64,000 nucleotides of DNA from Candidatus Omnitrophota bacterium (GTDB taxonomy: Bacteria > Omnitrophota > Gorgyraeia > Gorgyraeales > Gorgyraeaceae): the NCBI GenBank assembly GCA_030691625.1, contig JAUYDX010000042.1:463-64462 (forward strand), written 5' to 3'. A program made the position numbers and the translations under genes. Of the stretch, positions 1 to 64,000 are shown piece by piece (the first letter of the stretch is position 1; each line of letters starts with the position of its first letter). Below the pieces are notes generated by a model. That model made no database searches and was not told where the DNA came from. It saw only the letters and a program-made list of their open reading frames with translations.

Positions 1-3000
1 ATCGTAAATGGCGGGACAATGGACGCGTCAGAATACGGGAGCATAGATTCAGACGCCAATAAAAAGGACAGGTCTGCTTTAGCTGACGGCAGGATGTTTT
101 TACAGAGCTCGCTATTATCCCTGCCCAGAAATACTGACGGCAGCGCCCTTGACTGGACCAGGTCAGGCGCGCATGCCATGATAGCAAGGCAGACCCTGAC
201 TGTACCTGGCCAGGACCACACTCACACCAGGGTCTGGACAGCCATATTTGACACTGAAGGAAATCTTGTAGCTCTTATTTCTATTGACCTGGATGAGAAT
301 GAAAGGCCTATAAATCCAGGTCCTGTGATGAGCGATGGTTCAGGAAGGATAAGGCTCACAAGGATAACCCAGGGAAATACCACTTACACAGCCATCTGGA
401 GCGCAGACGGCAAGACGCTTCTTGCGGTTTACGCAGTGACAAGGTCTGGAAGCGGCTGGTCTAGCGCCACAGTTACAGATACGCCTCCTCCTGGGAGCCC
501 TTTAAGCGTGGGCCAATACAACCTGGAGAACACAATAACACCAGAGGCTGTTTCTCCAAATGCCTTATTATCCCTGCCAAGCGGGGTTCCGGCGTCTGCC
601 TGGGATCGAGTGAACGGCAATAGCCGCATAATAAGGGCTACGCAGCAGTTTGTAAAAGACGGCATCACGCTCACGCGTGAATGGACAGCTGTGCTTGATG
701 AATTTGGGAATGTAATAGCGCTCTTTTTTGCCGATTATACTGATTATAAAGATCCTGATCCGGCTAAGAAGAAGCTTGTTAACTCCGGCTCACAGTTCAA
801 TATAGGCGGGGCAATGGGCAAGACCCAGAGGGCTATAGTGACCAAGGATGGCAAGACCATATTTATTACAGGCATATTTGACAGTTCAAATAAGCTCATA
901 GCAGTGCTCTGCGTTACCATAGGGCAGAATGGCAGTATTAGTGGCGCAAAGCTTGAATCCGCTGCTACGCTTGGCATAAGAGATCTGCAGGATATGAAGA
1001 ATCTTAGCGATGAAGCTAAGGGTGAATTAGCCAGGTGGCTTGGCGTAGATTCTGCCAGCTTAAATAACCTTAGATGGACCAGCATGTCCAAGCCCACAGG
1101 GCCTGAAGGGTTTGATCTTACCGGAATGAGTGAGGAAAATAAAAGCAAAATACCTGAGTCAGGAGGCAATGCCTATAAAAATAAAATTGTAATAGTCAGC
1201 AATGACGGCATGACATGGTATGCCTTGTACGATGAAAATGGGAATCTCAAAAACCTGATTAAAGTTAATTCAGATAAGAGCGTTGAGGTCCAGAGCGGGC
1301 TCACAGGATTTGATTTTAGCGATATAGATATGGCTACATGGAATATACTACTTGATTGCCTTGAGAATCCAGGGGCGCATAAAAATGAGATATTATCTTT
1401 ATCGTTAGAAAATGGCAAGCGCCAGGACATGGGAGACAAGTGGAGGCAATGGACATTTGTATTTAATGACAAAGGCGAGCTTACAGCAGTGACTTATATA
1501 GATATTGATAAAACAAGCGGTAAGACTATTGGATACAATATCCAGCGCAGGACAGCCACAGAGTATAAAAACCATCCTGGTTATTACAATATAAGCATCA
1601 CTACAAGAGGCATGCAGATCTTCAGGGACGCGCATGACAATGTCATCCATATAATCAGGGAATACAGCGAGGCCTCAGAGACATGGACGCATATAGACAA
1701 AAATGATAACGGCATAGTGGATGAAGGCGATGAGATGAAGAAAAATGTGTCTTCCAGCAGGTATCAAAAAGACACATTCATGTTCTGGGATTATACCAGG
1801 GATTCTGATCCAAATAAAGAAGGCATGCAGGCTTCTCTTGGCAGATATACCACTATTGAGCAGAGCACGAGTTTTGATGACTGGTGGGACGGGGTGAATA
1901 TAAAGGATTTGAAAAATGCTGATGAAAGCCCTGTTAATTTTGGGCCTGAGGTGCGAGATGGGGAACGCACAGGTATACAAAAACTTTCAAGCGGAAATGT
2001 CCGAGTATGGACAGCTGTATATGAGAACGGGGTGCTCAAAAGCTTATCTTATAAAGAATATAAAAATTTTACAGATTTAGAACACAGAGGAGAACAGGTA
2101 GGGGATGAGGCCAAGGACCTGCACGAATGGGTGCATAAGAGAGAATCCAATTCATATTATAAGGAGAGGCATATTACGCTCGGCGCTGATGGCAAAGCCA
2201 CAGGTTATAATTCAGTAGTGGAAAGCAAGAGCTGGATAAAATGGGACGCGTATAGGAGCTCAAATACACAGGCAGGCAATGAGATACAGGGAAGTTCGAA
2301 CAGCAAAGACCAGACCCCGTGGTATAGAAGGGAATTAACTGTAACATTTAGCAACGGGGATCCTACAAGCACTGTATTGCACGAATTCGGGCTTAAGTAT
2401 GACAAAGAACATCCAAGCGGGTTTTATTACATAAGGCATGTGGAGGATGACAAGGCTAAGGTAAATACCGGATCTAAAAATTATTACATAGTAAGCCCTG
2501 TGGCTAATGAACATGACCATAAGGCAGGAAGCTGGTATTATTATAATCCTGAAGCCAAAGAGGGCGAAGATCCCTGGTTAGGGCTAATAACTTTTACAAA
2601 TGGCAAGGCAGATGGGACATCTATACCTGAACCAGGGATAACCAAAAGGCCCAGCTTGCCATCTGACGAAGATTATAGTTTAGATAATGATGATAAAGGT
2701 AATAAAGACTGGCGGAAGAAAAACATGTCAATGGGCGCCAATAACCGAATTCCCGGGCCCTCTGTGGAAGCCCTGAGAAATGCGCCTGATACAGCATTGC
2801 CGTCAGGTTTTTACGACAGGCCGCAGGATGGAGAAGCTGGTTCAGGAGAAGAATTTGACTATACAGACTGGAAATATGACAAGGAAACAGGCCAGCTCTG
2901 GATGCCTGTTACACGCCAGATTATTGAGTATAAGCTCAGCGGCTCAGGCGAGAATGCGAAACGCATAGGCGAAACCAGGAAGACCTATGAGTATATACCT

Positions 3001-6000
3001 GGATACGGCTGGTTCTATGTGTCAAAAGAGGTGACTACATACCTTACCTGGAAAACAGTCAATACGGGCAGGACATATTCAGACGGAACGCCTGTAACAA
3101 ACGAGATGGTGACAAGCTCTGTCACAGACTTCTACGATGTTGTGGGAGGGCTTGAGATACTCACATCCAGGACAAAGACAGAGGTCATATTTGAGGGAAC
3201 AGGGCCTGACAAAAAGATATCTTACACGCAGGTTACTTATTATACCTGGATAGGCGGATCTTTTATTGAATCAGGCATGACAAGGACATACCAGGAATAC
3301 GATGAGCTTGGAGAGTACCGCAAAAAAATAGATACATTTGAAATAATCCCTGGTTCTGACCCATTGCTTATAAATACCCAGTTTGTAAAGGTGGCTCTGG
3401 AAGACATAAATCAGGATGGGAGGCTCGAATCTGTAACTACTGCCAGGACATTTGAGTTTGGCATAGAAACAGGGACGCAAAAGACATGGAATGAGATAGC
3501 TGTAATAAACGGGGAGCTTAGAAGGCTTACCAATGCGCTTAATTATGAGATACCGGGAAGCGACCTAGCCTCTACATTGTCTCTTACCTACAGGACAGTA
3601 GACCCTGAAAAAGGCCCTGTAACAGTCACTAATATTTATGATGTCCTGGGCTCGACTATACCTATATTTAATCTGCCTTATTTAGGCATACCAAGCTCTG
3701 TCATACACAGCTATAAGGCGCCTAATACGCCTGCCAATATAGCAGCTGGCCAGGCTCCTGTGGTGACAATAGTAAATAATTACATACAAATAACCCGCGA
3801 TCTTATTTTATTAGAGAACATGCAGAGGATATACAACATGGCTGTGCAGATAGCAGGCGGAGGCACCAGGTTCGGCCAGGTAGTGGAAAATTACATAGAC
3901 ATAAATTCCAATAATATCCTGGATAGCGATGATTTCCTCGAATACAAGACCTTCACATATTGGGATAAAGTCAAGAACAGGAAAGGCGAGGATGTGCCCG
4001 GTCAGGTTATAGAAACTATAATAGATGTAGCTGGTAAGGAGTTTATAGAGTCAGTAAAACATGTGTATAAAGAGCCGGGCACAATAGGCGGCAAGCCTGT
4101 AATCTTTACAATCACTGATTATTTTGAATCAGGCGTAAAGCTTTCCACGCAGGTATCCTGGAAGATCATTGAAACAATTCAGGACCCCAGATATCCCAAT
4201 GACCCTGCCAGGACTATTCAGAGGCTTGTTACAATAACAGAATTTTATGAATTAGAAACCAAGATTGCCACACAGAGGTCATGGAAAGAGGAGCAGGAAG
4301 TAAAGGTAACCATTAATGGCAGAGAACTTGTCATTAAGACAATGGTGACGATTACAGAGACAGAGGAATTCGATATCCTGACAGCCATACAAAAGGCGTA
4401 TAAATACGCTGAAAACGGGAAGCTCATCCAGGTCATTGAAAATTACGACCCTGTATTCAGCGAAGATGACCCTGTTTCCATCCAGAAAATATTTTATGAC
4501 AAGCGTATAATTTCAGATGATACAGAAAAGTTTGTAAAGGTTATTGAGACATACGAATTCGGCATAAAATCCCTTACCCAGTATATCTACTATGACGAGA
4601 AAGACACTACGCACGGAAGGCTAAAGGTCCAGGTGATTGAGAATAGATTAGAGATTGGCAGTGAAAACATTGTCCAGTCAATACAGTATGTTTACAGGTT
4701 TGAGGAGACAGTTGTCACAGACCTTGCTACAGGCGGGGAAGGCAAAAAACTGGTAAGCGTCATAGAGACCTATGAAGGCGCAGGCAAGGAATATTTCCTG
4801 ACCCAGGTCCAGTATGATTACAGCGTTAAAGGCAGGGATTCTGAAGATACCAGGGATGTTGTTAAAAGGGTCAGTATATATCTTGACCCTGTTTTAAAAG
4901 AGGGCAATGAATACAGCCTTATACCCATATCCCTGCAGGCCACGTGGAAGGAAAGGAGCGCTAAGGATCCGACCAAGATACTCACGTTTACAGACTTCTA
5001 TGAGATGTTAGAAGGCGGGAAACTTTTTAGCTTAAGCCGCCAGATATCTTCCAAGGCCAAGGAAAAGATAAATGGCATAGATACGCTTGTGACAATAACT
5101 GACATCTATGAATCAGGGGTAAAGACAGCCACACAGAAGACATGGAAGGAAACAAGGGATATAACCATAAAACAGGACGGCAAAGATATTATCGTAAAGG
5201 CCCTCCAGACAGTGACTGAAACAAGGGAATTTGACATAGAGATGCTTACCTCTATCCAGAAGTCATTCAGGTATATAGAGGAAGGAAAGCTCATCCAGCT
5301 CATTGAAAACTTTGACCCTGTGTTCAGCTCTACTGAAGCGATTTCCATCCAGAAGATATATTATGAGGAGCGCGAGATAGCTGATAAGACAAATAGGATT
5401 GTAAAGGTCATTGAGACATACGAATTCGGCATAAAAGACCCCACAGCTGTCCAGTATATTTATTTTGAAGAAAAAGACACCACTCACGGACGGCGCAGGG
5501 TCCAGGTAGTTGAGAATAGATTCATGGGTATTGTGCAGTCAATCCAGCATATTTACAAGCTGGTAGAGAAGGACCTGATAGTTGACCTTGCGCTAAAGAC
5601 AAAAGGCGATAAGCTCGTGACTGTCATAGAGACCCTGGAAGGCGCAGGAAGCGAGTTCTTCCTGACTCAGGTCCAGTGGGATTACTCAATCAATGGCAAG
5701 GATTCCAATAATAAGGATGTCATTAAGAGGGTCAGCTTATACTTTGAGCCTGGGCTTGACGAATATATCTCCATGCAGGTTACATGGAGAGAACAGGGGA
5801 GAAGAGGAGACAGGGTAGCTGAAACTGATGTGGCTTTGACCATAACAGAGACTTACGAGTTTGACACTAAAGTCTCTACTCAAGTTTCCTGGAAGGAAAA
5901 ATCTGCGCGCGTAATAGGCAACCGCATTGTGCCTACGCTGTTTACTATCACAGAGTTTTATGAGCTGGGCATAGTTGATGAGGCGCACAAGATCACTGTC

Positions 6001-9000
6001 CAGGCATCCTGGAGGCAGAAAGAGACAATAAACGGCAAAGAAACAGTCGCCAGTTATATTGATACCAGGGAATTCGGCATATTCACTTCTGGCCAGAAAA
6101 CCTGGAAAGAGGTCATAAACCTGACAGATGCAAGCAAAAATCCTTATAAGAGGATACAGACTGTAATAGAGACGCGGGAATTTGACATACTTACTTCAAC
6201 GCAGAAGATATATTATGATAATATCGAGACAGCTTATGGCAATAGATTGGCGAAAGTTGTTGATACCTATGAGTTAGGCCTAAAGGACCCGACCTCGACC
6301 CAGTATATCTATTATATCAGGAATGAAAATGTCTCTGGCTCTCCAACTACATTGATCCAGGTGATTGAAAACAGGATACGTATCGGCAGCGACAGCTTTA
6401 CTCAGTCTATCCAGTATGTGTATCATAAAAAAGAAAACGTGCCCCTGGATTCTGCTAATCCTGGCAGTCTTACCTCAAGGCTGGTCACTGTAATAAAGAC
6501 ATACGAAGGCGATTTCAGCCAGGGCGTTGATGAAAAAGGCCTGCTTAAAGGAGCGATTTTAACCCTTACCCAGTTTGATTACACTATTAAAGGCAGGGAT
6601 TCCAGCAATACAAGAGACGTTCTTAAAAAGGTCAGCCTGTATTTTGAACCAGGTATCAGCGAATTTGTTTCCATGCAGGTTACATGGAGAGAAAAAGGCC
6701 AGAGAGGCGGGAACGATGTTGTCCTTACAATAGCCAAGAATTACGAATTAGGAATTAAAGACCCTATTTCCACGCAGATTACATGGAAAGAGCCTGGCAA
6801 AAAGAATAATGTACCCACTTTACTTACAATCACAGAAACCTTTGAGCCGGGGATTGACCAGTATGTATCAAAACAGATTTCCTGGAAAGAAAAAGGCGTT
6901 AAGAAATTGGGCAATGTAAATACCGAGGTCCTGATTACCACCACTGAATACTATGAGATAGGCTTTAGTGATGCAATTTCTACCCAGAAAACCTGGAGAT
7001 ACACTGACTCTAATCTGACAAACCCGATTACAAATACCAGGTTTGGGAAAAATCTTCTTGTAACAGTAATTGAGAATTACGAACTTGGCACTGTAGGCGC
7101 GATCTCAACACAGTATGTTGTTAAAGATGGTAAATATACCTATATAGTTACATACGAACTCGGCATGGGAGATCAATGGACATCAGTTCAGAGGATCTCC
7201 AAAGAATTTAAGGATAATAAATTTGTCACTACCACCGACTACTTTGAGCCGGGCATATCTGACCCAGTCGCAACCCAGAAGACCTGGAAGGAGGTAAGAA
7301 CAGATGTCATTAACCCACTTACAGGAAAAGCCTTTGGAACTAAAAAGATTGTAACAGTGACCGAGAACTATGAATTAGGCATTGATAAGGCAGTCTCCAC
7401 CCAGAGAGTCTTTAAGGATGGCTTATTTACTTATGTAGCTACCTATGAAACAATCGCGGGCCTGGCAGAAGGCCAGTGGTCAAGCGTGCAGAAGATCTTC
7501 AGGCAGTATGACAAGACAAAAGACAAGATAGTGACCACTACGGAATATTATGAATTCGGAATAGTAGGCGCAGCTGTCTCCACCCAGAAAACGTGGAAAG
7601 ACATAGCGACTAAGAATGTAAAACCGGATGGCGCTAGCATCCTGGGCGGCATGGACTTCACAGGCAAGCTCGTCACAATCACCGAGAACTATGAATTAGG
7701 CATTGATAAACCTCTTATAACCCAGTATGTGGTAAAAGCTCTTCAAGGCAATGTCTTTAATACCTATATAATTACATACGAACTTGGCATCAGCGACAAG
7801 CAGTGGACAGGCATCCAGAGGATCTCCAGGGCATTTGAAGACAGGCAAACTAAAGGAAAGGTCCTTGTCACCACAACCGATTACTTTGAGCCAGGCATAT
7901 CTGACCCAGTAGCCACTCAGAAGACATGGAAGATGGTTGCAGAAAAAAGCACCGCAGATAAACTTAACGGCATTGAATTAAAAGGCAAGCTCGCCACAGT
8001 CACTGAAAACTATGAATTAGGAATCACTGAACCTCTTACAACCCAGTACACAGTAAGAGCCATCCAGGGAGGCATCCTTAATACCTATATAGCCACGTAT
8101 GAAACAGGCCTGGGAGACCAGTGGAGTTCCATACAGAGAATAACAAGAGACTATGACACTAAACTTAACAGGCTCGTCACCAAAACAGAATATTTTGAAC
8201 CGGGCATATCTGATCCAGTAACAACACAGGAGACTTGGAAGAGCGTAGCTGTCAAAGGCACACTGCTTCCTATGGGCGGAGACCTAACAGGCAAGCTCGT
8301 TACAATCACTAAAAACTACGAGCTTGGAATACAAGAGGCTGTATCCACCCAGTACGTAGTCAAGGCGCTTCAGGGAGATGTATTTAATACCTATATAGCC
8401 ACATATGAATTAGGCCTTGGGGAACAGTGGTCTTCCATACAAAGGATATCAAGGGCATTCACAGGCGGCAAAATAGTCACCACCACAGATTACTTTGAGC
8501 CGGGCATATCTGACCCAGTCGCAACCCAGAAGACATGGAAGATGGTGGCAAGCGAAAGCACTTCAGAAAAGCTTAACGGCATTGAATTAAAAGGCAAGCT
8601 CGCCACAGTCACTGAGAACTATGAATTAGGAATTGCCGAACCTATTACAACCCAGTACACAGTAAAGGCATTCCAGGATAATCTCATAACCACCTATATA
8701 GCCACGTATGAAATAGGCCTTGGAGACCAGTGGACATCAATACAGAAGATAACCAGAGACTATGACACTAAGCTTAATAGAATTGTCACCACCACAAAAT
8801 ACTTTGAGCCAGGCATAGAAGGCTATATAACCAGACAAGAAGCCTGGAAGAGTGTAGCTGTACAAGGCACAGTTCTTCCAATGGCTGGAGACCTCTCCGG
8901 CAAACTTGTAACAGTCACAAGGAACTTTGAGCGCGGCATAGAAGAGGCTGTATCTACCCAGTATGCGGTAAAGGCATACCAGGGAGGAGTCCTTAATACC

Positions 9001-12000
9001 TATATATCAACATATGAATTAGGCCTTGGAGACCAGTGGTCAACCATCCAGAAGATCTCAAGGGAATTCAAGGACAATAAGATAGTTACTACCACTACCT
9101 ATATAGAGCTTGACACTGTAACAAGCATCCAGGAATCCTGGAAGGAAGTAAATAAAGGAAGGATAGAGACCATAACAGACACCTATGAATTCGGCATAGG
9201 CTTTGACACCCGTAATGACCCGGCCAAGAGAATCACCTACGCCCTCACTCACCAGGTATCCTACAGGGAGATCACGGACAACAGGATCAGTACCACCATA
9301 GATACCTATGAATTAGGGGCTGATTTTATAAGCTCTACCCAGAAAATCTCCAAGCGCGATACAGGCACAAGGATCGAGACCGTAACCAACACATATGACC
9401 TCGGCAAGATCGAAGACTACGCCTGCACCCAGCAGATTGCCTGGAAACAATTAGAATCCGGCAAGCTCGTCACAATAATCGAGAACTACGAACTCGGCAA
9501 TATCTTCACCTTTAGCCAGAAGATCACTAAAGAGTATGTGAACGGAAGAGCTGAAACCACCACCACCTATTATGACATGGCGCATTACGAGGCCGGCAAG
9601 ATGAACGAGGCAATCGCCATTAAGCAGGTCTCCTGGAGGGAAAAAGACGGCGACAAGATAAAGACCGTAATAAAGACCATAGAGCTTGACACTGTGACAA
9701 GTATCCAGGAATCCTGGAAGGAAGTAAATAAAGGAAGGATTGAGACCATAACAGATACCTGGGACATGGGCTTAAAAGGCGAAAAATCCGCCCTCACTCA
9801 CCAGGTCTCTTTTAGGGAAATCACCGGTAATAGGATCACTACAACAATAGATACCTATGAATTAGGCGCTAGCTTTATAAGCTATACCCAGAAGATCTCC
9901 AAGCGCGATACAGGTAAAGCAATCGAGACTGTTACCAATACCTATGAACTCGGCAAGATCGAAGACTACGCATGCACCCAGCAGGTTGCCTGGAAACAGC
10001 TTGAAGGCACAAAGCTCGTTACAATAATCGAGAACTACGAACTCGGCAATATATTCACATCAAGCCAGAAGATAACAAAGGAATACGTAAACGGAAGGGC
10101 AGAGACCACTACCACCTATTATGACATGGCTCATTACGAGGCCGGCAAGATGAACGAGGCAATCGCCATAAAACAGGTATCCTGGAGGGAAAAAGACGGC
10201 TCAAGGATAAAGACCACCACCAAGACCATAGAGCTTGACACTGTAACAAGCATCCAGGAATCCTGGAAGGAAGTAAATAAAGGAAGGGTTGAGACCATAA
10301 CAGATACCTGGGACATGGGCTTAAAAGGCGAAAAATCCGCCCTCACTCACCAGGCCTCTTTCAGGGAAATCACCGGTAATAGAATCACTACCACAATAGA
10401 TACCTATGAATTAGGCTCCAGCTTTATAAGCTATACCCAGAAGATCTCCAAGCGCGATACAGGTAAAGCAATCGAGACCGTAACCAACACCTATGAACTC
10501 GGCAAGATCGAAGACTACGCATGCACCCAGCAGGTTGCCTGGAAACAGCTTGAAGGCACAAAACTCGTTACTTTTGTTGATACGTATGAACTTGGCAAGC
10601 ACCTGACACAGACTCAGAAGATATGGAAAGAAGCAGTAATAGACGCAACTGGAAAAGTGACAAGGGTTGACACAATCACGCTGTATTATGAGTTGGGATA
10701 CGAAAACGCATTTAATGTTGTTGAGCAAAGGTCATGGAAAGAGGTCTCAGATAGCGGCAGAATAGTTACTGTCATAGAGACAAAGGAAGCAGGGATAGTT
10801 ACAGGGATCCAGAAGTCATGGAAAGAGGAAAGGGATAATAACGGCCAGAAGGTAATAGCCACCATAACTGATTATTATGAATTAGGGTCTGACATCGCTT
10901 ACACAAGGCAGATTGCGTGGAAGGAGATAAGGGAAAGCAAATCATTAAGTGAATATACAGATTTAGGAAAGAAGATAGTGAGCGTTACTGAAACCTATGA
11001 AGGCATGCCAGGCTCCAGGGTCCTGATATCTACGCAATATTCCTTCAGGCATGCGCAAGATAATAAGATATATACCTATACATTGACAGAGGAATTTTCC
11101 GCCAGAATCCTTACCTCTATCCAGATATCCTACAAATATGATGACGCTAAAAAAGGCCTTGTAACTGTTATTGAAAACTACGAGCCGGGTATAAAGGATG
11201 CCAATGGGCTTATAAAGATTTCCTGGCAGGAGATATATTATGGCGCGCGGAAGACAATAGAGGGAGATAAGAGGGTAAAGGTAGTTGAGAACTATGAATT
11301 CGGCATCCAGGGACCAGCGCTTACGCAATATATCTACTACAGGGATTATAAGGATGCCCCAGGCGACGGCATAAGGATCCAGGTGGTAGAGAATATCATA
11401 AAGGTAGGGACTGGTGATTTTATCCAGTCAGTCCAGTATATCTACCGCAAATATGAGGATGTGCCTGATCTATCTGGCGGATTAAAGAATAAGCTCGTCA
11501 GTATAATAGAGACGTATGAAGGCGATCTTAGCCAGGGTTTTGACGCATCCAAAGGCCAGTTCAATGCCGCATTTCTCACCCAGACCCAGAAGGACTACAC
11601 TGTATTCCACGATGATAAGCTGAAGAGGATAAGCCTTTATTTTGAGCCAGGGCTTGAGCAGTATATATCCATGCAGGCCTTCTGGAGGGAACTTGGCAAG
11701 GATACCGCGGGAAGGGATACTGTCCACACTGTGGCAGATTCTTATGAATCTGGTATCCAGGATCCTATCAGCACCCAAAGGAGCTGGAAGGAACTGCTGG
11801 ATACAGAGGCATTAAGCGACTCTTATGTAAAGTTAGGCCAGAAGATCGTGAACATAACCCAGACTTATGAAGGCGCGCGAGGGTCAATGTCTCTAGTATC
11901 AACCCAGTATTCATTTAAAGACGTAAAGGATGATGTAGTTTATACCTATATATTAAATAAGGAGTTTGATGCCCAAATCCTTACATCAATCCAGAGGACG

Positions 12001-51000: not shown

Positions 51001-54000
51001 GAGACCGGGGCAAAGGATGCTGAAAAAGATAAAATGCAGGAAACATGCATGCTTGGCTATATTGCAAGGAATAACAGTCCATCATGGGAGAACAGCGTTG
51101 ATTATATAACTGATAAGATACAGGAAAGATTTAATGTCGTACCTGATGAAAAGAAAGATAAGATAAAAGAATACCTTAAAATTTTAAGGGGCATGACAGA
51201 GACTACGGATGTGTATAACTCTCTTTCCGGTATTGGCGACCCAAAAACCGAATTGATCATAATTAAGACAGTGGAGACATGGATAAATGAGATGATCCCA
51301 AGGGATTTCGGGGTTGTGGAGTCATTTTATAATGACACGATAGAGATGCACCTTTATATAGCCAGCCAGTTAGGGGATTGGGCATATTGGAAAGAGGTAA
51401 GACAGGCTGTGATGAAAGATGATTTTATTTCTTTGAGAGATTATTTTGAGAAAAAAGGCGATGAAAAATTAAAAAGGACTTTTTATGCTTATGATGAGAT
51501 AGCAGAGTCAAAAGTCCAGAATATATATCATGATGTCAGCATGTGGGCAGGGGATGGTGCGGAGATGCAAATTGACGAGGATAAGAAGGTGTTCAAAGAT
51601 TATAAGAGTGTGGATTATTTCATAGAGGTAATGCGCGGGTTGGCAGATAAGGACAAAAAACTGGCAGATGACATAGAGGCGGTTATAAATAAAGCTGATA
51701 AAGAAACAATGGGGAAGGATGAAAGAGATATATTGATGGGCTATAAGAAATTTGAGCCTATAGAATGGGCTGAGAAATTTATTGAACTGCGCGAAAGGTC
51801 TTTGCCAGACCTTATCGCGCTTAAGATAGATGATGAGGATTTCTGGAGCGCCTTTGATAAGCTTTACCAGAGGGCTAAGATGTTCGCAACCTGCAGTAAA
51901 TTTGATGTGGATGTGCCTTTGTTTAATAAGAGGGACAGCCTTATACCTCAGAAAAACCCCGCGATAGCAAGCTACAGATGGAAGATATTCGGAAAGACCA
52001 GCGGCCATGACTCATTTGTGAGGATATACCCGGGCCAGAATCCCTGGACATTGAACCTTCTTACCCTTCAGGGCAGAAACCTGGACATAGCCTGTGTCCT
52101 GCCGCCTATAAAGATAGCGTCTAAAGGCAGGTATTTCCCCACAACATATACATACGCTGTCGGCCAGGAGGCATTTACCTATGTGGTCCAGCCAGCGTGG
52201 AAAGGATATCTGACCTATTACGGGAAAGGCGTCGCAACGCCTGAGATCATAATGCTTTTCCAGACCCCAGGAGAAGACTCAGCCAGTTTCATGATGATTA
52301 AGAAATATTACCCTGAATTTATTTCAGAAAACCGCAGTTACAGAAAGCTTGAATGGGGCAGGCCTACCTTTGTGAGCACAGTGGCTTCAACAGAATTGAG
52401 ATACGCATATAATGTCGCCAGGTATTTTATGGATTATTCCACATACCAGATATTTTTTGACAAAAAAATAGGTTATGACACCAAGTTAGCGTTTTTAGTA
52501 TTCTTCATGCATTATCTTGTGGCGCCTTTTGTCATCCTGTCGTCTTTTTCCCTTATCTTACTGACCCTTGGCAGCGCCTACGCGTTTTTACCTGTGTTAT
52601 TGTTCGCGATTATAAATACCGCAAGCTCGCAGTTCATTAACCTCTCCAATTTCTCGCGCTATATGGTGCAGACAGGAAGCGCCGGCCAGGCAATTAAGAT
52701 GACATTCAAGGATATCTTGTCCGGATTCTCCATGTGGGTATTCATGTTCCCGCTTTTCTTCCAGGGCCTGTGGAACGCCTCAAATGAGGTGTATTCCTAT
52801 ATCAGGACAGAAAAGAAGGTGGCGCTATCTGAGTTCAGGGAGAACAGCGATGAGCAGATCTATGTAAAGGCGATGAAATGGGGCGCTATATATGGATGGC
52901 TGGGGATCATCGCGATAGCTATCCTGGTGGCTGAGGCAGGCCTTATCGGCTCTATATTCGCGCCTTTTATCATGGGCCTTTATATCCTTTCTGTAAACGC
53001 GTGGGTTTCAGGGATATTGAGTTACAGTAAGTATGAGGAAAAGGAGGAGGCAGGGAAGATATTGCAAGTCAGGTTAAAAGGATTTTCAGCAGGGAGTTTC
53101 TTTATAAAAGGTATTTCTTTTACCTTTATAAAAATCTCCAGGGATCTATGGGGCGCGTTCTTAGACTGGGCATTGTCCATGCTTAAAAGGAGCCTGCCAC
53201 CTAAATTGTCTTATACAGGCGACGCGAGAAATGAAAAGTTAGCTAATAAAGCGATAGAGGACGCTGAAAAAGAGGATAAGGTGCTGGATGCTGAAGAGGA
53301 ATCCATAGAGATAAATCTGCCGCAAGGAGAAAAGAAAGAAGTAGATATCAGGGTCAAGGATGTTATAGATACATCGTATCTCTGGAGAGGAAGAGGAGCG
53401 AACAGGACTCACTGGGAATATCTGGATGTCATTAACGGGATTATTTATATATCTGACAGCTCTTATGAATATGAAGGCCTAAGGGAGTTGATACTTGGTC
53501 AGGCCGCAGCTGAACTATACATGTGGAGGCAAAAGGCAATAGAGCTGGCAGGTTACCATGATAAAACGTGGGACAATCTGGCTGGTAGAGAGAAGAATAA
53601 GGCCATGAAGCGCCTCAGAGACTGGCAACTGCGCAATCCAGAAGCTGCGGCAAATTACGGCAGACACTGCAAGGAAGAGGCAGATAAGATCTATCAGCCG
53701 CTTATAAGGTCGCTTCTTGAAAAATATCATGAAGCTACCAGGCAGGATGAGGAGGAATTAATAAAAGGCCTTGTCATAATAAGCTTCGCAGGCAAGTATG
53801 TTAATATAAAACATTATGTGGACATGGCAGTTAGAGATATTATCCCTGAAAAGCAAGCATGGCCTGACCTTACTGATGATGAGAAGATATCTATCCTGGA
53901 ATATTATACTGATAAGGTGATAAGAATATCAAAAGGCATGAATCGCATATCATGGGATGAATGGAGCGATCTTCCAGGCGCAGAGAAATTAAAATGGGCT

Positions 54001-57000
54001 TCTTTGACAAAAGAGGAAAAAGAAAATATTCTAAGATTCTGCAGGGATAAGCATAATAAGATACCGGAAATAGAGTCTGCGGCCATTGAAGCTGAAAAGG
54101 CCAGCGATGATGTATGGGAAAAGTTGCGTTATAACAGGAGGCGTGACCAGAAAACACTTGAGGATATCATAGATGAGCTGAACCAGCTTACCATAGGAGG
54201 CGTTAAGCAGGGATATAAGGATGTTTCATCGCTGGATGATGCTGTTAAAAAGGCCGCTAAAGGGCTTGGCTGGGATATGGTATTTAAAGGATGGTCAGAA
54301 TTAAAATATGAGGATAGGAAGTTATTGCTTAACGCGCTATCAAGGTATAAAGACCTTAATTATGGAGAGATATCAGAGCTTGCGCGTCAAAGCTGGAAAT
54401 TCGGATTTAATGAAGATAGATTAAATCAACTGTTAGTAACAGGAAATACATTACATAGATTGATAGAAGAGGGGCAAGCTGATGAAAGAGACAGGATTCG
54501 AGACAGATTCTTCAGATTCAAGAGATGGTCTGAATTATCTGATAAAGAAAAAACAGATGTAAAGAATGAAATAGAGAGATTGTCAGGTGAGCCGCAAATC
54601 ACAGAAAAAGACAAAAATGCATACAGAAAGATATTAGAATTAATTAGAGAGTCAGGCAATAGGAATAATGAGATAGAGCCTGCAAACCTTAAAGATATAC
54701 TTAAAACGCCTGAAATTAAACCTGATGGGAGCGAAGGCGAAAAAGAAGACCTTAATAAATACAGCTGGGCAAATGAGTTAAGAGAACATGGTAGATATGA
54801 TGCGGTTAAGGGGATAACTCTGGATATGATTTTTAACGGCCATTATGGGGCGCATATGCTATTTGGCGGGTCAGCTACGCGGCTTGGGCTCGGCGCCATG
54901 TATTTCATAAGTATAGCAGAAACCTGCAGGAAACTGGTTGAGATAAAAGAAAAGATAGGTCAGGGTAAAACACCCACTGATAATGAAAAGGTAATCTGGT
55001 CCAGTTTTATAAAATCCATACCGCATCCTGCAAAGCAGGAACGCGTAATAGAAAAGATACGTAAGTTCTTAAAAGAAAAAGATGAGGTTTTATATAAAGA
55101 TTCTGGTTTTAGTGAAGAAGATATAGCCGCTTACAGGCATCGCTTAGAAGAGTTGATAAGCGATGCGAGAAGGAAGGACGCCAATCCAAAGGCAGTAATG
55201 GCTCATATAAAGGATTTCTTAAACTCAACAGAGGTTAAAGAAAAAGGCTTGCCAGGCACGGGGATTGATCAGATAGCTATTTACAGGCAGAGTTTGGGAG
55301 AATTGATAAATAAGGCGGAGAGAAAAGACGCTAAGCCTGAAGCAGTAATAGCTGATGTACGCGGATTATTAAAAAAGATCCAGGAAAGTATTTCAGGTGA
55401 AGACCCTGGGTTAGGGCCTAATCAGATTATCGCTTACAGGATGCGCATAGAGGAATTGGCAAAGGCAGCTGGAAAGGCCGCGGATGAGATAAAAGCGATT
55501 ATAAATAAACAGGTATTAGTCCTGCATGTGAACGCTTCGCTTTTGCGCAAGATAACAGAAGACCTTAGAAAGAATGATTTCTACGGGTTTAACCCGGATA
55601 ATGTGTATGTGATACCTTCGCCCATGATTCTTGGCCACAGGCTTGGCAAAAGGCGCGGGGAATTTATCCTTGACCTGGACAGCCCAAGGCTTGTTGTGGG
55701 CCATGGAGAGGCATTTGAGCAGTTATTCCGCAAGGACCAGGTTTATCAGGCAGGCGAAGACGGGAAACCCGTAAAGGTAATGGGAAGATCAGCAGAAGAG
55801 ATACTTGAGGAAAAAGGCGTAGATGTCTTTTGCGCCCAGAGGATAAATAATCTTAAGATGTGGACAGACGAGGTCTTGACCCTTGAGGCTGTTATGCATT
55901 TTGCGGATGACCCAAACCTTGATCTACAGGTAATGCTGGTGGCTAATCCTACGCGCCAGAAAGGCGGTTCGTGGTCATATATAAGGGGAAATAATACCTA
56001 TGGCCTGGTGGAGTCGCTCAGCTTAAAGGCAAACGGCATCAAAGAAATACAGAACACCCCTCCAGAATCTTACAATGAGTTTACTAATTGGTATAGATTG
56101 AAACAGATAAAGAGCAGGTTAAATGTAAAGAGCGGCATAGAGCTGGTGCAGAGATATATCAAATATAAACCAGATGACAGCGAATATTATAAACTCAGGG
56201 ATGGATATGGCCCGCAGGCGCATACTGACGCTGTAACAAGCGATTTAACTCTAAATGAGAGGTTGCGTTGTAAAGCGGCGCAGAGGACACCGCAGGATGC
56301 TATAAATGATTTCAAGGAGCTGAAAAATTTAGAAGCGGCTATGAAGGCTGTGCTGGGATTCCTTAAGAAGAAAAAGGAACACGAAGGCAATCGTCAGCCG
56401 CCATCAGGGTCTGACACAACGCATAATGAGGAAACATTGGGAGGGACACAGGAGTCTCTTGGGAGCAATATGAATCTCGTACCTGTCATTATGTCTGTTC
56501 TCATGTCGCTTGCTGTATTCCTTGATAAAAAAGTTTTATTCCCGCTATACTCTAAAGAGCCCATAAGAGAGGAATTAAGGCCCAGCTGGCAGAATCTGAG
56601 CACTGATATCATTCCTTATGTTATCCTGTTCGCGGGTTTAGTCAGTTTTGCGTCATTTTCAACCACAATAGCGGCAATTATAGGCCTGGCTGTAATAGAA
56701 TCCTTAGGCTTAAGCAAGTCTGTCCCAGACAGGCTATTCCATACACTGGAGTTTATGTCAGGCGTTGCGTTTTTCTCTTTATTGACAGTTATTACCTTGT
56801 TTGTGACAGCCTTAATAATACGTCCTTTTGAAAAACCTTCTACAGAGGTTTTAAAGCCTGTAAACCAGCATTTCTGGCAAAGAAAGCCTATATGGGGCTT
56901 AATAGGCAGGGTTACATTCCAGGAATTATTCTACACAGGCGGCCTGATAAGCATTCCTTCGATTTTAATGGAGTCATCAGGATTTAAATCTTATTATGTG

Positions 57001-60000
57001 TATATGTCGAGGGTAATTCTTGTAATGTTTGGGGCGTGGATATTCGGAAGGTCTCATCAGAAGCTTATTTACTGGTCTAGTGACAAACCAGGCCTGGAAG
57101 AAAAGGAAGATACGACCTCAAGGCATAAGTTATTTTTCTCCACGCTGGGAATAGTTTTCAGAGGCCTGTATCTTATACCCGGCATCAATGCTTTAGTAGG
57201 GCTTTTTGGGGCTGTTTCCATGCATCTATTCTATGGAGTAAAGATAGCCCCATTCTTTAACCTGCCACAGGCCATTGACTCATCGCATGAACAATCTATC
57301 AATGAACGGCTTAGCTATTTATGCGAGGGTAGCGAAGCTATGAAAACAGCTATCAAAGGCGCTATTGTCAATGATTACTGGTCTTATGGCGATCCGCCAT
57401 TTAAGGTTACGGTTAGAGTTGATAAGGACGGCAAGATGATAGAGGACACAAAAAAACTGCATATAAACAGAAGGTTATTCGAAGGCCTGTTAAGCCATCT
57501 GCATGATAAAACAACAGGCGATATGTGGCGTTATATTACTATAGCATTATTGAAGTATCTTGAGACATCCTTCTTGAATTTAGACACTTATGACTTAAAG
57601 GCTTTGGCCAATCTAAAGCAGATCTACATTGGAAGGCCGTATAGCAAAGAATACAGGCGAGATCGCTTGAATCCGTTGTATCAGGATACAGAAAAGTTAA
57701 ATTATACCAGCGCGCTTGCGGCGCTGTATGTATATTATGAATCTTTCAATAGCGCGGCGTATTATGACTATCTAAATAGCAAGGGGGTTATCAGCGCTGA
57801 CATAGAAGACCTTGCTAAGGCTGTAAAAACAGATGGCTTCCTCAGCCTTACTCTTGGACGGATGGCTGATTTTATGTATAAGTGCGAAAGAGAAAATATA
57901 ATAACTGCTACGTTAGATGCTTTTCTACATGGGCGCAGAGGTTATATTGCAGAAGCAATTCAAGATATTGTAAGCGGGTATAGAGAAGAGAAATTTATGA
58001 AATATATGTATATATTAGCCGAAAGCGCGCCTGAGGAAAGATGGCATGACCTTATAAGTTTTTTCTGGGAGATAAAGACAAACCCAAACGAGCAGGTAAA
58101 AGAAGGAGAACTGGAATTTGCCAGGCCTTTCCAGTTATATGAAACTTTTATGAAAGATGAAGAGAGAAAGCCCAGTCATAATCCTGGAACAGAAAGTATC
58201 GCCAGCGGCGCATCCCTTAAGGCCTCGCTCAGAGATTTATTCGCAGGCAATAAGGAAATGCAGGCAATGATAGCAGATAGCGTTATTCATGGCGATTGGG
58301 GATTTGGAAAGCCTGCCGCTGAAGTTACAGTAAAGATAGGAGAGACGCCTGTCCTGAATATCAACGGTCAGCTGTTAGATGCTTTATTAAAGAAGATAGA
58401 AAAAGACAATAATCCTGAACATAAGAAGATCTGCCTGGCTACTATTATGGGCGTATTGAAACAGGAGAAGGCTCATATTGATAATATTAATGCCAATGCT
58501 TATGACTTAAAGGCCCTGGCAGGCATAAAGGAGGGCTTTAAAGAAGCGATGGGAATAGACCCTGATGCAGAAAGAGAGGAGACAAGAAAAATATCAGAGG
58601 CCAGGGCTGGTTTGCAGGTTAAATATGAAGAGATAGGTTATAGGATATTAGACAAAGAATATCGGGACCGGCAGATTCATTCTACTGCCATATATAATCT
58701 GGGAGAGGCATATTATAGAGAGGGAGATGAGTTATTGGGCCGTACATTGATGCAGATATCAGAGTTTAAGAAAGGCTGCGAGACAGGGAATGGCAGCGTG
58801 TCATATCCTGCGGCGCTTGATTTGGAAAAAGGCGAAAAGAAAAAAGAAGACAACAAGCACTGGGATATACCAAGGTCTATTGAAATAGCATCGCAAGACC
58901 CTGGTTTTGTAGATCATTTAAAGAATGACTCAGATAGAATGACAGTAGAAGAGGTTAAGCAGAGATTTAATATCCCTGAGCAGGAAAAAGTTAAAATGCC
59001 GGCCGAGCTCATCTTCGGCTCGGGAAGTGTTTCCGAGTCTGCCGCGCTAAGCAGTAACCATTGGTTTACAGATTTTTATCCTATTATATGGTTAAAAGAA
59101 AGATGGTCTGCAATCTGGAACCGCAGATCAAGTTTTCTGCAGGTATTGCCGCATATTGAATCGCCTGCAGTTTCTACGTCAACCAATGATTTACAGGCCG
59201 GACAGAAAATCCAGGAATTGCCGATAAGAGAGAGGATTAGAAAAGAAATCATGGCGCGTTCTGATATTGTCAGTTTTAATCCTACTAATGTCAGGGAACT
59301 ACAAGATAAGTTTAAAAACAAGAGCTCTGGGCCTGAGAAAATAGAAAAAATTGTCAGACGTTTATTAAAAACAAATGAAATAATAGAAGTATATGGCGGA
59401 AGATTAGTTGCGATTAAGACTAACGGGGAAGATAAATTAGGCGAGTTAATAAGGATAGGGATGCTTGTGAAATACCGCAGTCCCGAAGGGATAAAATATA
59501 TAACTGGAAAAGATCTGGAAATATTAAAAGCAAACAATAAAATTATAGCGGTGTCAACGGATGAAGAAGGATCCCTGGAATATATACTGGAGAGCGATTT
59601 GAATAAGTTTGAAGACATAATAGCGCTTCATTCTGCTGAGACTACAGGCAAGCCAGCTGAGCGAACAGTCAGTCCAAAGATTTCTTATTACCAGGCTGAT
59701 TTATTTTTCAAAATGTTCGAAGGCAAGTTTATAAAAATCGATAATCCTGCTACAGGCAAACCCAAATACATAGCATCTCAGGGAGAACACAAAAAGCCCT
59801 ACTTAAAAGAAATTAGGGATTCAAATAGGCGTAAGCTCGAGAAGATAGTTGGGAAAAAGCTGATGGTTAAAGAAAGCGACGCGGATTTAGAAAAAGAAAT
59901 AAAGGATTATATCGGTATTATAAGGAAAACATATACGATCCTGGACACTGTTTTTGGAGACAGGCCGGACGCAAAAACAGGAGAATACTTAAGCGACGCA

Positions 60001-63000
60001 GCATTAGACAGGACATTTGACACAAGCGACTTAGCCATAGCTAATAATTTGTTTGATTTTAATGCGCGCGAAAGCAGAGAAAAATATATTCAGTTACTCT
60101 GCGCAGCATTAATTTTAGATATACCCGACGAATCTCTCGCAGCGCTTTCCAGTAAAGAAACTGAGCCCATAAGAAGGCTCGCGAATAAGGTCAGATTCAT
60201 GGTAGACGGCATGCCTTATAAAAAGAATACCAAGGATGATTTTCATGCAGGCAAGTTTGAAACTATGATAGAAGATATGATTGAAACGCCAGAGGAACTT
60301 TTGCTTTATTTAGGAGCCAAGATCGATAAATTAAAATCTCATGCAAAAGCTTCTGCGCAGGTAAAATCCGATTATTATGATGAAATGAGGTTTATAGTAG
60401 CAGCTGTTGCTCAGCGTTATGGTTTAGTGGAATTGGCAAATGAAATAAAAGACAGGGTTTTTAAGGGTCTGGACAAAGATAATTATGAAGCGACTGTGGA
60501 AGCCAGGGATAAGAAAACCGGGATGGAGGAAAAGACTGCGCAGAGGTACATAGAAAGATTGGTCGGTGAATTGAAACAAGCCCTGCTTGGAGCAGGATTA
60601 AAAGCAGACATAGAGATCTACGGCCGTTTAAAGACGCCTGGCAGTATAGAACAGAAAAAAGGATTGAGGGGCTATGACTTTGATGATATGAGAGATCTGA
60701 TAGGGGTTAGGATCATTACAGAAAATGATCAAGATTGTTACGCGGTAATAGCTTTAATCAGGCAAATCTCCCATACAGAAACAGGAGAAAGGTCTTTTCT
60801 TGGCAAAGAAATATTAAAGGGATATGACGACTATATCGCAAAGCCCACAAAAGACGGATATAAAATGTTGCAGTTATGCGTGAACCATCCGATTGGTTTA
60901 AATGTTTCAAAATGGGGAATTATTGAAAACTCTTCGCAGTCGCAAACCATGCTTCCTATAGAGATACAGATCAGAAGCGCAGAAATGGAGAAGAAGGCGA
61001 AATACAGCAGTGATATCAGTGATCCTGTGAGAAATGCTAAACTAGCAGGCTATAAGTACTTTAAGAGCACAGGCTATGTGCCGGATATAGGCGTTGACTT
61101 AACGAGAAACATAAAAAATGTTAAGGAAAGTTTAAAAGAAGGCGATAAAGAACTGAGAGGTAAGGCCATATACTTACGTTTGCTGGAGAATAATGAAATA
61201 ATAAGGCTTTTGGAGACTCATGAAGGCCCTACGCCTGTAGACGCAATCTGCCACCGCAGGTATACAATGGATGATGTAGAAAGAGTGAATGGGATCACTA
61301 TAGTTACACGGGACGAAGATACAGAAGTTCCTAAAGAAATCAGTATCAGTTTGCTGGGAAAGGGCACGCAAAAAGTAAAAAATCTTCAGTACTTGGGGAA
61401 AAAATTACGCAGTGGAGATTCTATTGTAATAGAATATGTAAGAAAAGGAAGCGCTCGTATGCCCCTATTAGATTATCAGCCAGAACTTATACAAGCTTCT
61501 AATAATCTCAGGACGCAGGTATTATGCAGAAACTTAAAAGGTGGTTTAGACAAAGCTAAAGCGGAAGGAATAAAACTATTGCGCGAAGCAGGTATTATTA
61601 AAAATAAAAGAGATAAGAAGGTTTCAAGAGGCATAGAATCCGAATTGACTCCTATCGCGAGAAAGATTTGGGGCTTTCCAAAAGAAACATGGGAAGATGA
61701 ATTCTATGCAGCCGTAGGCACTCTTGTTAAAACAGGAAGCAATGTCAAAAGCTATGTTATTAATGTTAAAGATCTAGAAAACCTTGGTATAGCTCCTGTA
61801 AGCCTTTCAGGCTCTTCAGCAGCTTTAGCAGTTTCTTTAATCACCAGCGCCATACCTTTATCAGTAGCCTACAGCGTTTCCCAAGATATCCCGGAAATAG
61901 CTACTATAGCCATAGCCTTAGTCTCCCTGCCAGGGCTTATAACCAGCGCATTTTATCTAATACAGACAGGTTTCATAGCGTTCGCGAGGATATTGAATTA
62001 TCTTGTTAAAAGAGGCGTAATTCACGGGCCTCCAGGTTTTGGCCTTATACCAGAGTTTGAAGCTGCTATAAACGATCCTTCCTCAAAAGACCCTGCTTAT
62101 GTATCTCAAGACACGAAGCTTTATGTAAATAAGGCCTTAATGAGACTGATGCCTCAATGGATGCAGGGGCAAATCCTGATACACGAACAAATCCACCAGA
62201 ATGATATAGCCGGACATAGAAACCCAAGCGAAATAAGGGCATATCTAATGCCTGTCATGGAAAGTATCTCATGGCCGAAAGAAAAGTTCGCAAACATCCA
62301 GGGGAAAGTAAGATTTGAATTTTTAGCCGTTGTTATGATGTTTGGGATAGCCCTGGGGACTGTATATTATTTAGGCCATAAAGGACCTGATGCCTCAAAG
62401 GCAGAGCAGCATTATATTCTTGACAGCCAGGCAAAGTTATACAGCGAGCTTAGCAGAATAAACGAAGCAGAGGAAATAGCCGGCCATTATTATATGGGCC
62501 AGGATGGGAAATATCATATAACTGTTGAGGAAAGAGGCAGCGCTCGCTCTGTGTCCCCGGCTTCTCCTGAATTAAACGCGCATAATTTCCATGCCCATCC
62601 ATCGGAAAGCGCGACAAGCCCTCTGCATAAAACTCCGAGCCTGGCAGATCTATATGTTGTTATCGGGGACGCAAGGCAGGAGGACATAACAGTAACAGAG
62701 CCAGGCAGGTTTATAAAACTGGTAAATAACTCCACTGAGAGTAATCAGCCGTTTAAACGCCTGTACGTAGAGATCTACGACCGCGTAAAACAGGAAGTCG
62801 CGAAAATGGACCTGGATGAATATAATTCCGCGCAGATGCGGCAAGTATTAGCAACATATTTATTGAAGAAGGCCTTGTTCGAAAGGATTGAGGCTTTATT
62901 TAAGACTATTGCGCCAGATAATCCTGGAGCATCTGTATTTGATTTAGGCGAAGAAGACCGCAGGCTGGAATTACATGTTAATTCGTTTCCTTTTATAGCA

Positions 63001-64000: not shown

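Follow-up and report, generated by a model that had tools for sequence, protein, structure and literature searches.

The window analysed here is a stretch of 64,000 nucleotides (nt) from the Candidatus Omnitrophota bacterium assembly GCA_030691625.1 (contig JAUYDX010000042.1, positions 463 to 64,462, forward strand). It is filled from end to end by a single uninterrupted open reading frame (ORF; nt 1..64000, + strand) that is cut at both ends and comprises 21,333 codons. A stop scan of frame +1 found no TAA, TAG or TGA at all, where base composition predicts about 1,415 (log10 P of no stop, –636), while each of the other five frames contains 662–1,943 stops and stays open for at most 729 nt. 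We conclude that the window is very probably an internal piece of a real, single gene for a giant membrane protein whose length exceeds 21,333 amino acids (aa). In what follows all features lie on the + strand of the window.

The coding signature is continuous. In all 4-kb blocks purines account for 0.64–0.73 of first codon positions, and G for about 0.33, so frame +1 has the appearance of coding sequence along its entire length. Arginine is preferentially encoded by AGG/AGA and isoleucine by ATA; GC content is 42.7%, and the amino-acid make-up of the translation is that of a normal protein, with cysteine at only 0.26%. Antisense ORFs do not exceed 223 aa and are low-complexity shadows, and no tRNA genes or Rfam families are embedded in the 64 kb. 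Neither a start nor a stop is found inside the window. Its last 114 residues match positions 11–122 of a 210-position uridine kinase model, so the ORF must run past the window end, and relatives reach at least 560–720 aa farther upstream than the window start. Thus the original prediction, made by a model from the sequence alone, was right that one frame is coding throughout and belongs to a gene longer than 64 kb, that other frames hold only short ORFs and that AGA/AGG and ATA codons are used heavily. A titin-like or other eukaryotic cDNA was considered and rejected on the translation, the bacterial domains and the bacterial relatives. G+C content at third codon positions (GC3) forms a mosaic along the gene, with 0.46–0.51 at nt 1–16,000, 0.37–0.39 at nt 20,001–36,000, 0.48 at nt 36,001–44,000 and 0.39 at the end, and GC skew is negative at nt 8,001–10,000; both the mosaic and the skew shift might stem from the fusion of modules that differ in age or origin.

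The first 5,629 aa are beta-rich and have no hydrophobic helices in a hydropathy scan. They open with a region (aa 1–1,094, nt 1..3282) without a transmembrane (TM) helix or a Pfam domain, which carries short 'W-T-A-x-x-D-x-x-G-N-L' hairpin motifs and an internal duplicate (aa 1–250/187–311). High-scoring segment pairs with three related contigs (L002, L003 and L006, described below) are collinear with it, and aa 452–597 and 695–1,460 are collinear with relatives. Then follows an array (aa 1,095–4,817, nt 3283..14451) of about 43 diverged copies of a beta-hairpin repeat of about 93 aa with the motif 'KLVTxTENYELGIxxxxSTQxxWK'; a single-unit hidden Markov model (HMM) detects these ∼43 copies in the window and 99 when the relatives are added. 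The array is predicted to form an antiparallel up-and-down beta-meander. An AlphaFold2 (AF2) model of three units (aa 2,554–2,849), built from an alignment of 14 non-overlapping repeat triples and covering 296 aa of about 3,700, has 18 antiparallel strands of ∼10 residues each with a pLDDT of 85.1 and a pTM of 0.73. A Foldseek search of the PDB with this model gave nothing significant. Fold search likeness is to large antiparallel curved sheets and barrels and, more weakly, to Rhs and teneurin shells. On the model, the array would be consistent with the tubules of ∼1,500 aa that have been modelled as an 'antiparallel beta helix' in Omnitrophota giants (10.1101/2023.11.21.568195).

The number of repeats varies in the family, from ∼43 units (3,700 aa) in the window to about 1,000 aa of repeats in L006 (nt ∼1800–4500). 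Sub-arrays with periods of 102, 183 and ∼290–300 aa hint that blocks were duplicated in several rounds. The window's youngest duplication lies outside the main array (aa 7,049–7,334): two 151-nt copies (nt 21157–21307 and 21391–21541) are 96% identical, in frame and spaced by 234 nt, and a third copy is 64% identical.

The array leads into a likewise beta-rich segment (aa 4,789–5,629, nt 14365..16887), where conservation within the family is highest. Over aa 4,789–5,760 the window is 46–47% identical to two partial proteins, P0001 and P0002, and the segment ends in an invariant 'KKSGWGLFAF', the entry to the first cluster of TM helices. Its AF2 model, based on a three-sequence alignment, is unreliable (pLDDT 38), with a secondary structure of mostly long hairpins.

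Relatives of the gene are very few. With aa 5,001–8,000 as the query, a word-indexed search of 5.8 billion proteins returned two partial proteins, and a HMMER profile of the conserved region retrieved nine relatives at E < 1e–30, all fragments, from 1.84 billion representatives; scans of genome, metagenome and viral contigs with back-translated peptides gave none. An exact 50-mer from nt 30,001 likewise had no match in the genome and metagenome contig collections. The relatives come from short contigs (up to 15.5 kb) of metagenome-assembled genomes with a GC content of 40.5–44.4%, and such contigs are easily mis-binned when they fall entirely within a giant gene. Six contigs from separate assemblies are collinear with the window at 25–44% identity and jointly span aa 452–6,955: L002 (GCA_018896695.1, 15.5 kb) matches aa 452–6,955, L003 (GCA_038042525.1) aa 695–5,510, L006 (GCA_018813925.1, 8.8 kb) aa 917–5,629, L005 (GCA_041643075.1, 11.6 kb) aa ∼1,889–6,197, L007 (GCA_002771475.1) aa 4,231–5,252 and L001 (GCA_038078975.1) aa 4,331–6,248.

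Some of these contigs show features of their own. L003, labelled Omnitrophota, encodes two Peptidase_C39 domains in its N-terminal part (nt ∼1045–1310 and ∼4204–4548), and at the site of the second one the window has only a linker of about 125 aa rich in Asp, Glu, Gly and Pro (aa 852–977, nt ∼2556–2931); judged from this alignment, the gene in the window seems to have lost, or never gained, ∼590 aa including the C39 domain. On L001, a Desantisbacteria contig, two apparent genes are in fact one ORF split by a scaffold gap of 100 N with duplicated flanks. One product of this contig, P0001 (2,478 aa, JBBTME010000116.1), is named 'MFS transporter, partial' at NCBI, presumably due to its TM cluster. 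At nt 5493–8899 L001 remains open for 1,135 aa past the first TM cluster with no detectable similarity to the window (aa >6,248), so conservation stops soon after membrane entry and the C-terminal parts may be lineage-specific.

Could such an ORF be an artefact of assembly or annotation, that is, a chimeric contig or a row of adjacent genes whose stops were lost by consensus errors, with no polypeptide of more than 21,000 aa behind it? Stop statistics speak against this: with P of about 1e–636 for 21,333 stop-free codons, random joins or errors cannot yield such a frame, and every chimeric join would need an identical strand and frame. The coding signature runs on without intergenic-like gaps or RNA genes, and the contigs of relatives are likewise open in one frame, with 1–2 stops in three of them. 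GC3, on the other hand, ranges from 0.37 to 0.51 along the gene, and the C-terminal two thirds lack an independent homologous contig (the search was made with aa 11,001–14,000). Repeats are a further concern, and collapsed repeats were named in the original prediction as something that would undo it. The repetitive part is limited to aa 1,095–4,817, and the remaining ∼16,500 aa, most of the protein, are unique except for four small duplications. Nucleotide identity among the repeat copies is 61–96% and Tandem Repeats Finder detects no tandem array in the window, which together argues against a collapsed-repeat artefact. Copies at nt 7,600–10,700 are 84–94% identical over 66–300 nt, and their number could have been mis-assembled; collapse or expansion could at most alter the copy number around this place. 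Comparable ORFs have been confirmed elsewhere in complete long-read genomes. We therefore regard an artefact as very improbable, and the stop statistics together with the collinear relatives rule it out for practical purposes.

A single real gene is supported by the absence of stops, the normal composition, domains with intact catalytic motifs (see below), the confidently folded repeat and the collinear relatives. Several results pull the other way. For the C-terminal 14,000 aa the unbroken frame is the only support for contiguity, and aa 11,001–14,000 have no homologue in the word-indexed search of 5.8 billion proteins. Among the nine relatives the labels are mixed (Omnitrophota/Omnitrophica 3, Desantisbacteria 3, Actinobacteria 1, Patescibacteria 1), which bears out the caution about taxonomy in the original prediction. 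Judged by the relatives, an origin in Omnitrophota is plausible, and Omnitrophota or Desantisbacteria would be the most probable phyla. Three relatives carry 1–2 in-frame stops, which may be sequencing errors, real splitting or decay of some family members. These stops include those at nt 3994 (TAG) and 9106 (TAA) of L005 and at nt 5341 (TAA) of L006; the other two forward frames of these two contigs have ∼255–337 stops each, and the window has none in its frame.

From aa 5,630 on the protein changes its character. We called TM helices by a Kyte–Doolittle (KD) hydropathy scan of 19-residue windows and compared the counts with those in shuffled sequences. At KD ≥ 1.9 there are 24 hydrophobic windows versus a mean of 5.7 and a maximum of 12 in shuffles, and at KD ≥ 2.2 there are 11 versus 1.5. 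In total this gives 24–41 helices in 8–9 clusters, with none in the first 5,629 aa. Cluster 1 (aa 5,630–5,827, nt 16888..17481), the first hydrophobic segment, has about 5 helices and is conserved in P0001 and P0002, and cluster 2 (aa 7,947–7,998, nt 23839..23994) has 2 weaker ones. Cluster 3 (aa 11,034–12,101, nt 33100..36303) is the largest, with 9–11 helices and a protease domain inside a loop of ∼320 aa. Further on come cluster 4 (6–7 helices, aa 15,911–16,136, nt 47731..48408), cluster 5 (∼4, aa 16,723–16,827, nt 50167..50481), cluster 6 (3–4, aa 17,506–17,674, nt 52516..53022), cluster 7 (4–6, aa 18,824–19,074, nt 56470..57222) and cluster 8 (∼3, aa 20,608–20,792, nt 61822..62376). The segments between clusters are 600–3,800 aa long, rich in helix-forming residues and without annotation. 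Counting helices to derive the topology was tried and rejected, since ∼19 windows arise in shuffles at the lenient threshold. Inside cluster 8 there is a 'HEQIH' string of the HExxH type (nt ∼62182–62196, aa 20,728–20,732), which adjoins a weak DUF4329 match (E 0.005) and could be a remnant of a membrane-embedded metalloprotease, without HMM support.

Sequence searches against Pfam, NCBIfam and the PDB covered the entire chain as well as the junctions between tiles, in the manner proposed in the original prediction, and identified just three modules in 21,333 aa. A scan for Walker A, DEAD, HExxH and GGDEF motifs found nothing convincing, and PADLOC gave domain-level matches only, with no defence-system membership.

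The first module, in the middle of the chain, is a trypsin-like S1 serine protease of the HtrA/MarP type (aa 11,344–11,489, nt 34030..34467; PF13365, E 5.6e–13, 50 bits against a cutoff of 27.6). Its His-Asp-Ser triad is intact (TNHHV, GDLALLK and GASGAP). It matches DegP chains in the PDB at E 2e–4 and stays far below the cutoffs of the degP, HtrA and MarP equivalog models of NCBIfam. Like MarP (Rv3671c), it is a TM-flanked Trypsin_2 domain with a His-Asp-Ser triad. It differs from HtrA/DegP and MarP in that no PDZ domain is found near it with Pfam and in that it sits amid an 11-helix cluster of a giant chain.

The second module (aa 20,073–20,335, nt 60217..61005) belongs to the RelA/SpoT homologues (RSH), aligns to their HD-to-synthetase region and pairs a degenerate HD half with a downstream (p)ppGpp synthetase. 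The synthetase is recognised by PF04607 (E 1e–17, 65 bits, cutoff 27), and the module as a whole matches RelA/Rel chains in the PDB at E ∼1e–14 and positions 81–308 of 687 of TIGR00691 at E 3.4e–24, with 85 bits against a cutoff of 499. The synthetase motif patterns GRxKxxxSIxxK, DxxGVRII, DYIAKPxxxGY and EIQIRS are all present and read GRLKTPGSIEQK, DLIGVRII, DYIAKPTKDGY and EIQIRS in the window. In the hydrolase half a manual alignment places 'LD' at the 'HD' motif, 'AKIDK' aligns to 'DRLHN' of the RelA/Rel PDB chains, and HD_4 is matched only at E 0.017. With these motifs degenerate, the module is RelA-like and has a pseudo-hydrolase. It thus resembles long RSH enzymes (RelA, Rel, SpoT) in keeping the synthetase motifs, with the hydrolase degenerate as in RelA. 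It differs from them in being part of a giant membrane protein rather than a ribosome-associated factor of ∼740 aa, and in that Pfam detects no regulatory domain C-terminal to it: neither TGS nor ACT is matched in this region at E ≤ 5. By eye a stretch downstream of the synthetase resembled TGS, but this reading was dropped, as Pfam gives it no support at this threshold.

The third module is a P-loop domain of the uridine kinase/PRK type with the motif 'SSGKTT' (aa 21,198–21,311, nt 63592..63933; PF00485, E 1.5e–5, 25.3 bits, cutoff 22), and it is cut by the window end. Models of udk match it at E 7e–9, below their cutoffs, and uridine kinase chains of the PDB at E 3.5e–4.

A repeat array followed by enzymes recalls polymorphic toxins, and the gene could be read as an Rhs/YD toxin of giant scale, in which the hairpin repeats form the shell, the RSH and kinase modules are toxSAS-like and zeta-like effectors, and the protease performs self-cleavage. 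YD-like strings do occur just upstream of the first TM cluster ('YDAYGRPL', 'YDAFGQEI' and 'YDPVGLL'), the RelA_SpoT and trypsin-like domains match PADLOC models at the domain level, and there is a weak Zeta_toxin match in L001. But membership in the YD/Rhs family, suggested by eye, is borne out neither by HMMs nor by profiles: no RHS/YD-repeat HMM (PF05593, TIGR01643) is found at E ≤ 0.01 over aa 1–10,000 in Pfam and NCBIfam, nor at E ≤ 5 over aa 1–700 and 5,301–5,630, and sequence profiles built from the repeat and from the conserved region have no PDB match at E ≤ 1. The geometry is also different. Known Rhs/YD shells (8qjb, 9ifo, TcB-TcC) are built of units of ∼20 aa, not ∼93 aa, are ∼700–1,500 aa long compared with 3,700–5,600 aa in the window, and are followed by an autoproteolytic core and a C-terminal toxin, whereas here TM helices come next. 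The putative effectors would lie 6,000–15,000 aa and dozens of TM helices past the repeats, unlike in any Rhs toxin, and the RSH module is similar to long RelA (pseudo-HD plus synthetase; 85 bits for TIGR00691 versus 23 bits for the small synthetase YjbM) and not to stand-alone toxSAS enzymes. We give this explanation little chance.

Published giant proteins offer a much closer comparison. In the terminology of West-Roberts (10.1101/2023.11.21.568195) proteins of at least 10,000 aa are 'large' and those of at least 30,000 aa 'giant'; with at least 21,333 aa without a stop, the product of the gene in the window is large. A protein of 39,678 aa from Velamenicoccus archaeovorus has 42 TM helices, few domains and poor conservation (PMC10066038), and the gene described here similarly has three Pfam families above cutoff and nine relatives in 1.84 billion representatives. 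Every full-length giant carries numerous TM regions as well as long stretches of antiparallel beta helix (10.1101/2023.11.21.568195). Among 916 long proteins analysed by Nielsen & Lui (10.64898/2026.06.07.730766), 94% carry a signal peptide or a TM helix, 15% are without any match in Pfam or elsewhere in InterProScan, and 80% of sequence clusters are singletons. What the window shares with Omnitrophota giants is a single ORF of tens of kb with dozens of TM helices, roughly one every 500–900 aa, a long N-terminal part devoid of domains, long segments of predicted antiparallel beta repeats, divergent enzyme modules scattered along the chain and relatives labelled Omnitrophota, one of them with N-terminal Peptidase_C39.

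Not all reported features are present. SecA_DEAD or the SecA preprotein-binding domain is found in most full-length giants, and Peptidase_C39 is a reported hallmark of giant genes (10.1101/2023.11.21.568195); no window tile matches SecA_DEAD (PF07517), which may lie beyond the window, and Pfam finds no C39 peptidase in the window, though the collinear L003 has two copies. Nor were glycosyl transferases, glycosyl hydrolases, methyltransferases or NUDIX domains of the archaeovorin type detected in the window, or dockerin (PF00404) and TSP3 (PF18884) repeats. Conversely, a RelA-like RSH, an HtrA/MarP-like protease and a udk-like kinase are unmentioned in the main texts of 10.1101/2023.11.21.568195 and 10.64898/2026.06.07.730766. 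The gene fits a class already catalogued in Omnitrophota-like groundwater bacteria, of which it is a rare example and no new kind. Specific to it are the rarity of its family, the confident model of its repeat and the combination of RelA-like, S1-protease and kinase modules. The view in the original prediction that such genes are extremely rare no longer holds for the literature, where one 2026 survey counts 3,650 proteins that reach or exceed 10 kaa, and lengths go up to 147,155 aa.

How would such a chain be arranged in the cell? We think that it is probably a giant multi-pass membrane protein that combines a beta-repeat surface structure, clustered TM helices and tethered enzymes, with a possible role in contact. 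The beta-repeat region would be exported and form a long fibre, sheet or tube on the surface, touching another cell or a surface, and the TM clusters would thread the remaining chain back and forth across the cytoplasmic membrane. Because they need nucleotides, the RSH and kinase modules would be on the cytoplasmic side. The protease would occupy an extracytoplasmic loop, as in HtrA and MarP, where it could process the giant chain or other substrates. The whole protein might then be a membrane-anchored surface structure with tethered enzymes for attachment or interaction with host or prey, as proposed for V. archaeovorus, in which peptides of the giant protein are up three-fold in attached cells (PMC10066038). 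Taken by itself, the role in surface contact, drawn by analogy with such proteins, may well be wrong, and we would put its chances at somewhat below even.

Some of our results count against this arrangement. At the lenient threshold (KD ≥ 1.6) the 41 hydrophobic windows stand against ∼19 in shuffles, a high chance background, and the sidedness of the segments is not reliably derivable from hydropathy alone. Moreover, with SecA_DEAD, C39, dockerin, glycosidase and adhesin domains absent from the window, neither adhesion nor cell-wall digestion has a direct sign at the domain level.

The sidedness leads to another possibility, that nearly the whole chain including the beta repeats stays inside the cell and serves as a multi-enzyme membrane scaffold facing the cytoplasm. 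Two of the three recognisable modules, RSH and kinase, need cytoplasmic nucleotides. Furthermore, the TM-only class makes up 46% of long proteins and is read as membrane-anchored and cytoplasmic by Nielsen & Lui (10.64898/2026.06.07.730766), who also describe 'multi-enzyme' giants. The window contains no signal peptide, but the true N-terminus lies outside it, where one is possible. A TM-free hairpin region of 5,600 aa that continues directly into a TM helix is a layout typical for fibres that are exported, proteases of the HtrA/MarP type in loops between TM helices normally lie outside the cytoplasm, and the Omnitrophota relative L003 carries C39 domains, which are associated with export. A cytoplasmic scaffold thus appears unlikely to us.

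A bolder extension of the surface-exposed arrangement is an envelope-spanning device, in which contact of the beta-meander, perhaps a hollow tube like those modelled for other Omnitrophota giants, with host or prey would be converted directly, without the ribosome, to (p)ppGpp or nucleotide signals by the RelA-like synthetase and the nucleoside kinase of the same chain. Such coupling of contact to alarmone synthesis is not described for RSH enzymes or giant proteins in the literature compared here, and we consider it decidedly unlikely.

Of the large investments that Omnitrophota-like bacteria make in their small genomes, giant genes are understood least. These genomes measure 0.86–3.2 Mb, so that a gene of more than 64 kb could take up several percent of one (PMC10066038). 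With public relatives limited to contig fragments of up to 15.5 kb, the window shows far more of a rare and nearly unannotated family in one contiguous piece than any of them, and its domain map, comprising a repeat array, TM clusters and three modules with catalytic motifs, is open to piecewise expression. The picture of what giant genes are is left unchanged by the window; what it adds to the list of giant-protein modules is an alarmone synthetase, an S1 protease set within a TM cluster and a nucleoside kinase.

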